Assembly: GCF_054482595.1 (NCBI RefSeq)
Contig: NZ_CM137008.1
Strand: one strand, 5' to 3'
Length of the DNA stretch: 64,000 nucleotides
Shown: positions 3,314 through 11,032 of the stretch, in pieces
Layout: each line of letters opens with the position of its first letter
How positions within the stretch are numbered: the stretch's first letter is position 1
Translations under genes and position numbers: made by a program
The notes under the pieces: generated by a model
Told to the model about the DNA's origin: nothing
Databases searched by the model: none
Seen by the model: only the letters and a program-made list of their open reading frames with translations

Positions 3314-4231
3314 ATGCTTATCTTTATCCCGATTCTCATTTTTGTCGCGCTGGTCATTGTCGGCGCGGGCGTCAAAATCGTGCCGCAGGGCTATCAATGG
3401 ACGGTAGAACGTTTTGGTCGCTATACCAAAACGTTACAGCCGGGGCTCAGTCTGGTGGTGCCGTTTATGGATCGCATTGGTCGCAAGATCAATATGATGG
3501 AGCAAGTGCTCGATATCCCTTCCCAGGAAGTTATCTCGAAAGATAACGCCAACGTTACCATCGACGCAGTCTGTTTTATTCAGGTGATTGACGCGCCGCG
3601 CGCGGCTTATGAAGTCAGCAATCTGGAGCTGGCGATCATCAACCTGACCATGACTAACATCCGTACCGTGTTGGGTTCAATGGAACTTGACGAAATGCTC
3701 TCTCAGCGCGACAGCATCAACTCACGCCTGCTGCGTATTGTCGATGAAGCCACCAACCCGTGGGGGATTAAAGTCACCCGTATTGAAATTCGCGACGTGC
3801 GCCCACCGGCAGAGCTTATCTCTTCAATGAACGCGCAGATGAAAGCGGAACGTACCAAACGCGCTTACATTCTTGAAGCGGAAGGGATCCGTCAGGCGGA
3901 AATCCTCAAAGCCGAAGGTGAAAAACAGTCGCAAATCCTGAAAGCGGAAGGCGAACGTCAGTCGGCGTTTTTACAGGCTGAAGCGCGTGAACGTTCCGCC
4001 GAAGCAGAAGCCCGCGCCACCAAAATGGTGTCTGAAGCTATCGCCTCCGGTGATATTCAGGCGGTGAACTACTTCGTAGCGCAGAAATACACCGAAGCGT
4101 TACAGCAGATCGGTTCCTCCAGTAACAGCAAAGTAGTGATGATGCCATTAGAGGCCAGCAGCCTGATGGGGTCGATTGCCGGGATTGCCGAGCTGGTGAA
4201 AGACAGCGCCAACAAACGGACTCAGCCATGA
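3314..4231 (+). CDS. qmcA: SPFH/band-7 (stomatin/prohibitin-family) membrane protein QmcA
   Basis: 305-aa ORF with N-terminal TM helix, SPFH core and charged coiled-coil tail ([27 protein letters not shown]). Confidence 0.92.
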
Positions 4232-4686: not shown

Positions 4687-5094
4687 TCACCCTGCCCGAT
4701 GATGACAGCAGCCGGAGAGATTTTCGATAATCGGGCAGTCGGCGCTGTCATCGCCAGGGCAGGCATTCGCCAGTGCCAGCAGCTGGTCGCGCATGGATTG
4801 CAGCTCCTCAATGTGTCGTTCGATCTCCGCCACCTTCTCCAGCGTGCGCCGTTTGACGTCGGCGCTGTGCCGCTGCGGGTCGTTAAACAGATTCACCAGC
4901 TCGCCGCTCTCTTCCAGGTTAAAGCCCACCTGCCGTGCCTGGCGCAGTAAGGTCAGTTCGTTGAGATGCTGCTGCGTGTAGGTGCGATAACCGTTTTCGC
5001 TGCGCATCGGCGGCGTCACCAGCCCCTTCTCTTCATAGAAGCGAATGGCTTTGCTGGTCAGGCCGGTAATTTTTGCTACATCGCTGATGTTCAT
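4687..5094 (-). CDS. cueR: MerR-family copper-responsive transcriptional regulator CueR
   Basis: 135-aa ORF: N-terminal MerR HTH ([25 protein letters not shown]) and C-terminal metal loop [11 protein letters not shown]. Confidence 0.95.
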
Positions 5095-5218
5095 CGTTCG
5101 CGCAACGCCTCCTGTGCTTTGTTAAAGGGTTTCAACAGATATTCAAGCACGTTTTTTTGCCAGTGCGAATATCGACCGCCACCACAATAATACAGGAAGT
5201 ACTGCGCACAGAGAGATG

Positions 5219-6513: not shown

Positions 6514-7446
6514 TCAGCCCTTAAACACGTTATAGCCGAGTTGCTTAGCGACCGATGCCACCATTTTTTGACCGCGAACACTGTTGCCTTCTTCGTCCAG
6601 CGGTGGTGAGAACGCGGCAATTCCCATCACACCAGGGACGACCGCCAGAATACCGCCACCTACACCGCTTTTGCCCGGTAAACCAACGCGATATGCCCAG
6701 TCACCGGAGCGACCATACAGCCCTTCCATCATCATTTCGGCCAGAATGTACGGCACGTTATCGGCCTGAAGAACGCGTTTATGCGTCAGCGGATTCACTC
6801 CCCCCGCCGCCAGCGTCGCGCCAAGTGTTGCCAGTTCAACAGTATTGAGGAGCGTGGAGCACTGACGGGTGTACACGTCACAGGCTTCCATTGCATCACA
6901 ATAGAGATATCCGGCGGAGTACAGCAGCCAGGCAATGGCCCGGTTATGGAAGTTGGTTGTTTGTTCCGACTGGTTGACTTCGTCAGAGAGCGCTACCTGC
7001 TCACCAGCCAGTTGCTGTTGGATATGTAAAATTCGCTGCCAGCGTTGTTCAACATTTTCAGCGTTAATCAGGCTGGTGGTGGCAATGGCACCAGCATTTA
7101 CCAGTGGCGAAAGCGGTTTGCCGCCATGCAACTCTAAGGCGATAACTGAGTTAAAGGGCAATCCGGTCGGGTCAGCGCCAATTTTGTCCTGTACCGCCTG
7201 CGGGCCGACATCCTCTAACGCAAGGGCTAACGTACAGACTTTCGAGATGGATTCCAGCGCAAAGCGGTAATCACTGTCACCCGCACTATAGACCTTGCCA
7301 TCGCAGGTCACGATAGCCACTGCCGCCAGTTGACCAGGCACATTCGCCAGAAAGGGAATGTAGTCGGCATTTTGACCGCCGTTAAGTGAGTGAAATTGGG
7401 TGTAAGCCTGATCCACTGCCTGCTGTAATTTGTTTGCATCTAACAT
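6514..7446 (-). CDS. glsA: Glutaminase 1 (GlsA/YbaS)
   Basis: 310-aa ORF; matches the glutaminase family as recalled; upstream of ybaT with a 2-nt gap. Confidence 0.92.
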   Translation of the reverse strand: MLDANKLQQAVDQAYTQFHSLNGGQNADYIPFLANVPGQLAAVAIVTCDGKVYSAGDSDYRFALESISKVCTLALALEDVGPQAVQDKIGADPTGLPFNSVIALELHGGKPLSPLVNAGAIATTSLINAENVEQRWQRILHIQQQLAGEQVALSDEVNQSEQTTNFHNRAIAWLLYSAGYLYCDAMEACDVYTRQCSTLLNTVELATLGATLAAGGVNPLTHKRVLQADNVPYILAEMMMEGLYGRSGDWAYRVGLPGKSGVGGGILAVVPGVMGIAAFSPPLDEEGNSVRGQKMVASVAKQLGYNVFKG

Positions 7447-7637
7447 CTTTTGTTAACTCCTTTTTATAGATGCGGGAGGTAATTCCTCACCCCGGTGCCG
7501 ATTTTGAGGCATCCTGATTTAACTTAGCACCCGCAACTTAACTACAGGAAAACAAAGAGATAAATGTCTAATCCTGATGCAAATTGAGCCAATTTTTTAA
7601 TCTTTACGGACTTTTACTCGCCTGGTTTATTAATTTC

Positions 7638-7668
7638 TTGACCTTCCCCTTGCTGGAAGGTTTAACCT
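7638..7668 (+). promoter_or_regulatory. copA promoter with CueR operator dyad inside a long -35/-10 spacer
   Basis: TTGACC (7638-7643), then dyad ACCTTCCCCTTGCTGGAAGGT, then TAACCT about 19 bp downstream; classic MerR-type promoter geometry about 40 bp upstream of copA ATG. Confidence 0.85.
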
Positions 7669-7707
7669 TTATCACAGCCAGTCAAAACTGTCTTAAAGGA
7701 GTGTTTT

Positions 7708-10212
7708 ATGTCACAAATTATCGACCTGACCCTGGACGGCCTGTCCTGCGGTCACTGCGTTAAACGCGTGAAAGAAAGTCTCGAACAGCGCCCGGATGTG
7801 GAACAAGCGGATGTGTCTATCACTGAAGCGCACGTTACCGGGACTGCCAGTGCAGAACAGCTGATCGAAACCATCAAACAAGCGGGTTATGACGCATCTG
7901 TAAGCCACCCAAAGGCTAAACCGCTGGCGGAGTCATCAATCCCGTCGGAAGCACTGACAGCGGTTTCTGAGGCGCTTCCGGCAGCGACCGCCGATGACGA
8001 TGACAGCCAGCAGTTGCTGCTGAGCGGCATGAGCTGCGCCAGCTGTGTCACCCGCGTACAAAATGCGCTGCAAAGCGTACCGGGCGTCACTCAGGCACGG
8101 GTAAACCTGGCGGAGCGTACTGCGCTGGTGATGGGCAGTGCCTCCCCACAAGATTTAGTGCAGGCGGTGGAAAAAGCGGGCTACGGTGCGGAAGCGATTG
8201 AAGATGACGCTAAACGCCGCGAGCGCCAGCAAGAAACCGCCGTAGCTACGATGAAGCGCTTCCGCTGGCAGGCAATTGTTGCACTGGCTGTGGGTATCCC
8301 GGTAATGGTCTGGGGGATGATCGGCGATAACATGATGGTCACCGCTGACAACCGCAGCTTGTGGTTAGTTATCGGCCTGATAACCCTGGCAGTGATGGTT
8401 TTCGCCGGCGGCCATTTTTACCGCAGTGCATGGAAAAGCCTGCTGAACGGTGCAGCGACGATGGATACGCTGGTGGCGCTGGGAACGGGTGTGGCGTGGC
8501 TCTATTCGATGAGCGTCAACCTGTGGCCGCAGTGGTTCCCGATGGAAGCGCGGCATCTTTACTATGAAGCCAGTGCGATGATTATCGGTCTGATTAATCT
8601 CGGCCATATGCTGGAAGCGCGCGCACGTCAGCGTTCTTCTAAGGCGCTGGAGAAATTACTCGATTTAACCCCACCGACGGCGCGCCTGGTTACTGACGAA
8701 GGTGAAAAAAGCGTGCCTCTGGCGGAAGTGCAGCCAGGTATGTTGCTGCGCCTGACGACCGGCGATCGCGTGCCGGTAGATGGCGAGATTACCCAGGGCG
8801 AAGCATGGCTGGATGAAGCGATGCTGACGGGCGAACCAATCCCGCAGCAAAAAGGCGAAGGCGAAAGCGTCCATGCCGGGACAGTGGTACAGGACGGTAG
8901 CGTGCTGTTTCGTGCCAGTGCGGTTGGCAGCCATACCACGCTGTCACGGATCATTCGCATGGTGCGCCAGGCCCAGAGCAGCAAGCCAGAAATCGGTCAG
9001 CTGGCGGATAAAATCTCAGCCGTATTTGTACCTGTGGTGGTGGTGATTGCGCTGGTCAGTGCGGCAATCTGGTACTTCTTTGGTCCGGCACCGCAAATTG
9101 TTTATACCCTGGTGATTGCCACCACGGTACTGATTATCGCCTGTCCGTGTGCGCTGGGGCTGGCGACGCCGATGTCGATTATTTCCGGCGTCGGGCGGGC
9201 GGCTGAGTTTGGCGTGCTGGTGCGGGACGCCGACGCGCTGCAACGCGCCAGTACACTCGATACCGTCGTGTTCGATAAAACCGGGACGCTGACCGAAGGG
9301 AAGCCGCAGGTTGTCGCAGTGAAAACGTTTGCTGATGTTGATGAAGCGCAGGCATTGCGTCTGGCGGCGGCACTGGAGCAAGGTTCCAGCCATCCGCTGG
9401 CACGGGCGATCCTCGATAAAGCAGGTGATATGCAGCTGCCGCAGGTCAACGGTTTCCGCACATTGCGCGGGCTGGGCGTGAGCGGTGAAGCTGAAGGTCA
9501 TGCGTTATTGCTGGGCAATCAGGCGCTGTTAAATGAGCAACAGGTTGGTACCAAAGCTATCGAAGCGGAGATTACTGCTCAGGCATCGCAAGGAGCAACG
9601 CCTGTGCTGCTGGCGATTGACGGGAAAGCAGTAGCCCTGCTGGCTGTACGCGATCCGTTGCGTAGTGATAGCGTGGCGGCGCTGCAACGCCTGCATAAAG
9701 CGGGATATCGTCTGGTGATGTTGACCGGGGATAACCCAACCACCGCCAATGCGATCGCCAAAGAAGCCGGGATTGATGAGGTGATAGCCGGGGTGCTGCC
9801 GGACGGTAAAGCCGAAGCGATTAAACGCCTGCAAAGTGAAGGACGTCAGGTGGCAATGGTGGGCGACGGCATTAACGACGCGCCAGCGCTGGCTCAGGCG
9901 GATGTCGGCATTGCGATGGGTGGCGGCAGTGATGTTGCTATTGAAACCGCGGCGATTACCCTGATGCGCCATAGCCTGATGGGCGTTGCGGATGCGCTCG
10001 CTATTTCCCGCGCAACGCTGCGCAACATGAAGCAGAACCTGCTCGGCGCGTTTATCTACAACAGCATCGGTATTCCGGTTGCCGCCGGTATTTTGTGGCC
10101 GTTTACTGGAACACTGCTTAACCCGGTGGTTGCCGGAGCGGCAATGGCGCTCTCGTCGATTACCGTAGTGAGTAACGCCAACCGGTTGCTGCGGTTTAAA
10201 CCGAAGGAATAA
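7708..10212 (+). CDS. copA: Cu(I)-translocating P1B-type ATPase CopA
   Basis: 834-aa ORF; two N-terminal metal-binding domains (GLSCGHC, GMSCASC), CPC motif (IACPCALG), DKTGTLT phosphorylation site, GDGINDAP hinge. Confidence 0.97.
7908..7919 (+). other. copA: Programmed -1 ribosomal frameshift site in copA giving the short CopA(Z) product
   Basis: Slippery heptamer C_CCA_AAG at 7908-7914 in the copA zero frame (codons 68-69); -1 frame reads CCC AAA GGC TAA, stopping at 7917-7919. Confidence 0.7.
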
Positions 10213-10268: not shown

Positions 10269-11010
<742 letters not shown>

Positions 11011-11032
11011 GAGATGAAGCGATGTTTTGGCC

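Follow-up and report, generated by a model that had tools for sequence, protein, structure and literature searches.

The copA promoter of an Escherichia coli genome read as a CueR-dependent promoter with a 19-bp spacer

Which promoter drives copA in this E. coli genome, and does the inverted repeat inside it belong to the copper sensor CueR? The question was raised by positions 7638 to 7668 of a window of 64,000 nucleotides (the whole stretch of DNA that we analyzed), where the original prediction had placed a MerR-type copA promoter with a long spacer and a CueR dyad. The 19-bp spacer, the published core box, and identity with K-12 all bear that prediction out. We are highly confident that the feature is PcopA, the CueR-dependent sigma-70 promoter of the E. 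coli copper-export ATPase gene, working by distortion of its spacer. It is an already known feature, the CueR-activated copA promoter, unchanged from K-12. Its parts and the two genes concerned are located as follows.

7638–7643, plus strand: −35 hexamer TTGACC, matching TTGACA at five of six positions
7644–7662, plus strand: spacer of 19 bp, by direct reading
7663–7668, plus strand: −10 hexamer TAACCT, matching TATAAT at three of six positions
7641–7661, no strand assigned: CueR operator, a perfect 7-N7-7 dyad (ACCTTCC-CCTTGCT-GGAAGGT) with 0 mismatches
7642–7647 and 7655–7660, no strand assigned: CueR core box, CCTTCC and GGAAGG, centered on 7651, an exact match
7675, plus strand: putative transcription start (+1), within about 1 nt, from published structural numbering
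7697–7701, plus strand: Shine–Dalgarno sequence AGGAG, 6 nt 5′ of the copA ATG
7708–10212, plus strand: copA, the regulated target, a Cu(I)-exporting P1B-type ATPase of 834 aa (equivalog model NF007952, 1744.7 bits against a cut-off of 1316; RefSeq annotation)
4687–5094, minus strand: cueR, a Cu(I)-sensing MerR-family activator/repressor of 135 aa (NCBIfam NF007590, 308.6 bits against a cut-off of 244)

The two hexamers had been predicted to lie about 19 bp apart, and direct reading of bases 7400 to 7900 in the 64-kb window (sequence cTTGACCttccccttgctggaaggttTAACCTttatcacagcc) gave exactly 19 bp, with the promoter 40 bp upstream of the copA ATG at 7708. This is the sole arrangement of TTGAC, a 19-bp spacer, and TAnnnT on either strand of the window. 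The features that mark a MerR-type promoter were all found: recognizable hexamers 19 bp apart as against the usual 17 ± 1 bp; a dyad within the spacer that overlaps the −35 hexamer by 3 bp (ACC, 7641 to 7643, is common to both) and ends 2 bp 5′ of the −10 hexamer (TT, 7661 to 7662, lies between the core box and the −10); and a cognate MerR-family gene, cueR, in the same genome. A standard sigma-70 scan returned no promoter with a 16–18 bp spacer in 7300 to 7900. That scan took spacers of 16–18 bp only and at least four of six matches per hexamer, and with a −10 matching at three of six it was blind to the copA promoter. The missing call is as expected of a promoter that works poorly unless activated, with a spacer 2 bp too long, a three-of-six −10, and a five-of-six −35.

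The original prediction drew the dyad as ACCTTCCCC-TTG-CTGGAAGGT. Its place in the spacer was right, and its 9-3-9 form was not: only seven of nine positions are complementary in that form, and the true symmetry is 7-N7-7. The core, CCTTCC-N7-GGAAGG, is exactly the box defined by Shi et al. 2021 (PMC8169799), who cite Yamamoto and Ishihama 2005. The gene downstream, copA, serves copper homeostasis, as is characteristic of the CueR regulon. To place the transcription start, we relied on the CueR-induced kinks at −30, −24, and −18 (PDB 6LDI, reviewed in PMC9909328). These are symmetric about the dyad center at 7651, which would correspond to −24; the −10 hexamer would therefore span −12 to −7, and we infer a +1 at about 7675, 7 nt past the −10, the distance given in the original prediction.

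Sensor and target had both been predicted to be readable in the window, and both gene products indeed scored above their equivalog cut-offs. A further CueR model, TIGR02044, also exceeded its cut-off on the cueR product (207.5 bits), and the ZntR and MerR models fell far below theirs. Residues 1 to 135 of the window CueR match the CueR chains of PDB entries 1Q05, 4WLW, 6LDI, and 6XH7, which include CueR–DNA and CueR–RNAP–PcopA complexes. Its translation contains C112 and C120 of the CueR Cu(I) site, together with S77; the roles of these three residues were reportedly described by Changela and colleagues in 2003. The sigma-contact residues S32, E33, and T38 are all present as well. The cueR gene lies on the opposite strand, as predicted, and its start is 2,544 bp from the −35 hexamer, i.e. 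about 2.5 kb, a correction to the predicted 2.4 kb.

The window species is E. coli: the segment was found in 5,422 of 5,426 complete E. coli genomes, where it is annotated as lying between glsA and copA. The gene order is fetB-fetA-qmcA-ybbJ-cueR-ybaT-glsA-copA-ybaQ-ybaP-ybaK. Compared with K-12 MG1655, the 261-bp glsA–copA intergenic region has four differences, all of them 5′ of the promoter, and the stretch from the −35 hexamer through the copA ATG is 100% identical. Experiments on K-12 PcopA therefore apply directly to the window sequence. Strain W2-5 is identical to the window over the queried 7300 to 7800. E. coli genomes are 95–100% identical over the intergenic region, too alike to reveal selective conservation.

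Several other features of the locus were seen along the way. A programmed −1 frameshift in copA is indicated by a slippery C CCA AAG at 7908 to 7914, with GGC TAA in the −1 frame and a stop at 7917 to 7919. It would give a 70-aa CopA(Z) chaperone, in agreement with the two-piece “soluble Cu(+) chaperone” CDS of K-12. The gap between copA and ybaQ holds a tandem array of REP/BIME-type palindromes at 10269 to 11011 (7.4 copies of a 101-bp unit, 97% match), which is the source of a ladder of spurious 76-aa ORFs. Strain W2-5 has no such array, and about 114 bp separate its copA from ybaQ; array copy number thus varies among strains. At about 5091 to 5188 (positioned by correspondence with positions 2792 to 2889 of our locus L003), RefSeq annotates a short, frameshifted, incomplete “hypothetical protein” pseudogene that overlaps the cueR 5′ end in the cueR–ybaT gap.

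The K-12 promoter has been dissected by genetics, crystallography, and cryo-EM, and CueR footprinting or ChIP signal, as well as loss of copper induction in arm mutants, have been reported. PcopA and CueR of E. coli K-12 were reportedly studied by Outten in 2000, by Stoyanov in 2001, and by Petersen and Moller in 2000, and the structures 4WLS, 4WLW, 6LDI, and 6XH7 belong to this system. Shi et al. 2021 solved cryo-EM structures of CueR with sigma-70 RNAP and PcopA (−40 to +14), and they describe a 19-bp spacer, an inverted repeat that overlaps the −35 by 3 bp, and a box 2 bp from the −10 (PMC8169799). All of these positional details agree with the window coordinates. In the same study, RNAP bound PcopA poorly without CueR, and the CueR dimer bent and undertwisted the spacer, giving a −35 to −10 distance of 55.4 Å compared with 55.0 Å in a 17-bp promoter. 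Shifting the box by 1 bp reduced or abolished activation, and a copper-induced 250-bp PcopA–lacZ fusion, in cells given CuSO4, served to report promoter activity in vivo (PMC8169799). Apo-CueR represses the promoter further, and MerR-type regulation needs long spacers (reviewed in PMC9909328).

The mechanism that we propose for the window joins these findings with our own. The anatomy, the K-12 identity, the regulator, and the cross-species conservation were observed, while distortion, apo-CueR repression, and copper inducibility would carry over from the identical K-12 sequence. At 19 rather than 17 bp, the hexamers would be too distant and out of phase for the RNA polymerase holoenzyme to engage both, and basal transcription would therefore be low. 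A CueR dimer would sit constitutively on CCTTCC-N7-GGAAGG in the spacer, on the side of the helix opposite the polymerase, and in its metal-free form it would keep the DNA in a conformation that adds to the repression. Upon binding of Cu(I), Ag(I), or Au(I) at C112/C120, the dimer would kink and undertwist the spacer. [quoted passage not shown]

If the dyad is a CueR operator, other CueR targets should carry it. The original prediction had suggested cueO for this comparison and named absence from other targets as the result that would count against it. The gene lies outside the window, and we fetched the K-12 upstream region, which reads cTTGACCttcccgtaaggggaaggacTATGCT. Its promoter consists of TTGACC, 19 bp, and TATGCT, and contains CCTTCC-N7-GGAAGG, placed relative to the −35 exactly as at copA (locus L001, 608 to 638). 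The dyad is thus present at another CueR target.

Beyond E. coli, a DNA-pattern scan for TTGACCTTCC-N7-GGAAGG over a collection of genomes from 100,044 species returned at least 124 sites in at least 120 loci. The matches listed came from Alpha-, Beta-, and Gammaproteobacteria and some Clostridia. Since the pattern fixes the −35 and the arms, independent evidence comes only from the −10, the spacing, the flanks, and the downstream gene. TAnnnT stood exactly 19 bp past TTGACC in 59 of the 124 matches listed; at the free offsets of 17, 18, and 20 to 25 bp, it stood in 0, 0, 0, 2, 0, 0, 3, and 2 of them. The first downstream ORF was of a copper or MerR type in 80 of the 124 matches listed (48 CopA-like, 9 CueO-like, 8 small HMA/CopZ-like, and 15 MerR-family), a test that took the first ORF of at least 50 aa by crude calling and probably inflates the “other” class. 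At control pseudo-sites displaced by 3–4 kb in the same loci, 8 of 199 ORFs belonged to the CopA, CueO, CopZ, or MerR families. In the opposite direction, 16 of 115 ORFs among the matches listed did, most of them a divergent cueR. Sites at both copA and cueO were found in E. albertii, Citrobacter werkmanii, Pantoea sp. IMH, and Rahnella bruchi.

We aligned the copA upstream regions of 12 Enterobacterales, in which the promoter is a conserved island between flanks that are otherwise unalignable. TTGACC, which is part of the search pattern, is invariant in all 12. Past the pattern, the invariant columns are a C before TTGACC, CC after CCTTCC, and TTTA-C-CT, which includes the −10. The −10 itself, outside the search pattern, is conserved as TA(A/C/T)(C/G)CT, and AGGAG is largely conserved across genera.

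Matches in Clostridia (Oscillospiraceae, Faecalibacterium, and Lachnospiraceae, from both MAGs and isolates) form an observation of their own. There, TTGACCTTCC-N7-GGAAGG, with a good TAnnnT 19 bp on, precedes MerR-family genes of about 211–223 aa whose products compare with CueR at E values of about 1e-9 to 1e-15 (loci L006, L012, L018, L021, L051, L062, L071, L081, L083, L095, and L122). The arrangement suggests that Firmicutes have MerR-type regulators which control themselves through a CueR-like operator.

Two further elements were noted, one a candidate regulatory box 5′ of the promoter and the other a phage attachment core that overlaps it.

7603–7617, minus strand: CpxR-type direct repeat, GTAAA-AGTCC-GTAAA (a perfect GTAAA-N5-GTAAA), centered about 65 bp 5′ of the putative +1
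7628–7656, no strand assigned: 29-bp attB core TATTAATTTCTTGACCTTCCCCTTGCTGG of a P2-like prophage lineage of other E. coli, empty in the window

GTAAA-N5-GTAAA has no other match in the 64 kb, where 0.06 were expected. It fits the published CpxR motif (PMC9600279), and CpxR control of copA has been reported (PMC11005409). Judging from the motif, CpxR may bind at 7603 to 7617. The adjoining base, 7618, is T in the window and C in K-12, and the box is not conserved in E. albertii.

The attachment core came to light from a few E. coli genomes that matched the window only up to 7656, inside the dyad. In strain EC0026B, a degraded P2-like prophage of 9,862 bp lies between glsA and copA, carrying an integrase, an HTH repressor, a gpA fragment, ParM, portal and tail genes, Ogr/Delta, and a methyltransferase. 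The 29-bp core, which takes in the −35 together with three quarters of the CueR operator, is found at both prophage ends (attL and attR; locus L127, 234 to 262 and 10125 to 10153). At attR, the complete −35, dyad, and −10 are regenerated before copA, and phage DNA takes up everything 5′ of 7628. The attL end retains only TTGACC and the left half-site, after which comes TTTTTTAAGTAC. A second strain, 24A16CRGN010, has the same junction (locus L126, about 3682 to 3710) with an integrase that is 82% identical. Integration of a P2-like prophage at the copA promoter is thus well supported by two elements that share a junction. Of 5,426 E. coli genomes, 12 have a phage arm of the EC0026B type (five of these are derivatives of one strain), and 21 lack one-piece coverage of the promoter. 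A P2-like prophage is integrated in the copA promoter in about 12 to 21 of the 5,426. In 24A16CRGN010, we also noted that the gene beside ybaT (L126, 1 to 1272) is annotated as a TolC-family outer-membrane protein, not cueR, and that glsA has an internal stop; the cueR side of that locus may be rearranged.

Megablast of the integrase region against sequenced phages gave only a partial match of 8%, and the closest integrases of sequenced phages are about 50% identical at the protein level; thus, no sequenced phage with this attP was identified. No description of a prophage integration site between copA and glsA was found in the searchable literature. Integration would duplicate the core, rebuilding the CueR promoter at attR, and would replace the upstream DNA, including the CpxR-type box, with phage DNA. 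We entertain, with more doubt than belief, the idea that the copA core promoter and CueR operator double as a P2-like att site, and that lysogeny uncouples copA from Cpx while keeping CueR control. The uncoupling, like the notion that this att site is undescribed, is speculative. If true, lysogeny would selectively remove the envelope-stress (Cpx) input to copA and leave copper (CueR) control in place. An att site within the promoter is a modest lead: lysogeny might change which regulatory signals reach a host stress gene while leaving the gene active.

How far could the dyad be explained otherwise? It might be an inverted repeat that arose by chance in a weak sigma-70 promoter of the ordinary kind, with no role for CueR, and repeats of this general kind do occur at the chance rate: the window holds four perfect generic 7-N7-7 inverted repeats where about 3.9 are expected, and the CueR pattern at three or fewer mismatches, found four times compared with 1.77 expected, is not enriched. 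The exact CueR box, with 14 specified bases, is however expected about 2.5 × 10−4 times per window and is present once. The copA site alone has 0 mismatches, and the next best in the 64 kb has three. Furthermore, cueO carries the same box in the same register, the sequence is identical to the K-12 promoter of the CueR–DNA and CueR–RNAP structures and of the functional assays, and many genera conserve the box together with the 19-bp spacing and the copper genes downstream. An origin by chance is extremely unlikely in our view. Alternatively, the symmetric sequence could be primarily a phage attB recombination target whose likeness to an operator is secondary. The core at 7628 to 7656 does lie over the −35 and much of the dyad, and in other E. 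coli strains P2-like prophages with two integrases have their junction there. Yet it is occupied in no more than the 12 to 21 or so genomes given above, and it lacks the right half-site, which argues that dyad symmetry is not what the phage copies. Moreover, genera in which we saw no such phage still conserve the dyad at copA and cueO. Operator and att roles are compatible, conserved host sequence being a common target of phages, and CueR regulation at the unoccupied K-12 site is published, so attB survives only as an additional role; that it is the primary one seems very unlikely.

The dyad might also act through secondary structure, as a hairpin, terminator, or cruciform, or another MerR paralogue such as ZntR might use it. 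Its G+C-rich 7-bp arms and 7-nt loop, followed by TTTAACCTTT, do look superficially like a terminator. The terminator scan, however, made no call at the dyad, and glsA upstream is divergent, which means that no transcript needs terminating here; on the scan and the gene orientation, we rejected the terminator or hairpin. Being 5′ of the putative +1, the dyad would be absent from the copA mRNA. Across genera, the arms are invariant and the central 7 bp vary, a weak point since the search pattern fixed the arms. The box is, moreover, the CueR-specific one of the literature, and we give almost no credence to structure or a paralogue as the explanation. A CueR operator in a CueR-dependent promoter is the reading that we retain, and none of our observations speaks against it.

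With that reading, we have re-identified one of the best-characterized metal-responsive promoters, and very little of it is new. It is of use as a positive control, in that a reading of the sequence by itself correctly recognized a MerR-type promoter with a long spacer, along with the operator and the unlinked regulator. Comparison across species shows, in addition, that a −35, the dyad, TAnnnT at exactly 19 bp, and a copper gene together make a robust, transferable signature.

Set beside known systems, the feature is closest to PcopA and CueR of K-12, with the same regulator, the same neighborhood (qmcA-ybbJ-cueR-ybaT-glsA-copA-ybaQ), and an identical sequence from −35 to ATG. The window differs from K-12 by the four upstream substitutions, one of them beside the CpxR-type box at 7618, and by the strain-specific BIME array 3′ of copA; none of these differences falls within the promoter. 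The E. coli cueO promoter is alike in its TTGACC −35, 19-bp spacer, and dyad register. It differs in its −10 (TATGCT compared with TAACCT) and in its central 7 bp (CGTAAGG compared with CCTTGCT), and the flanking base of each arm differs too, leaving a perfect dyad of 6-N7-6 only.

At their divergent cueR–copA loci, Enterobacter sp. Ag1, Superficieibacter, Pantoea, and Photorhabdus have the same island, with the −35, the dyad, the 19-bp spacer, and a TAnnCT −10. In Enterobacter sp. Ag1 (locus L042, 3040 to 3160) and at four further loci (L024, L097, L102, and L055), cueR is divergent and starts about 10–20 bp from the copA −35, whereas E. coli has glsA and ybaT between sensor and target, an arrangement that may be the derived state. 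Finally, Pmer with MerR (Tn501, Tn21) and PzntA with ZntR, the archetypes of the long-spacer MerR type, share the design, in which a dyad lies in a 19–20 bp spacer, the regulator sits opposite RNAP, and activation is by distortion (PMC9909328). They differ from PcopA in their operator sequences and in the metals sensed, which are Hg(II) for MerR and Zn(II), Cd(II), and Pb(II) for ZntR.
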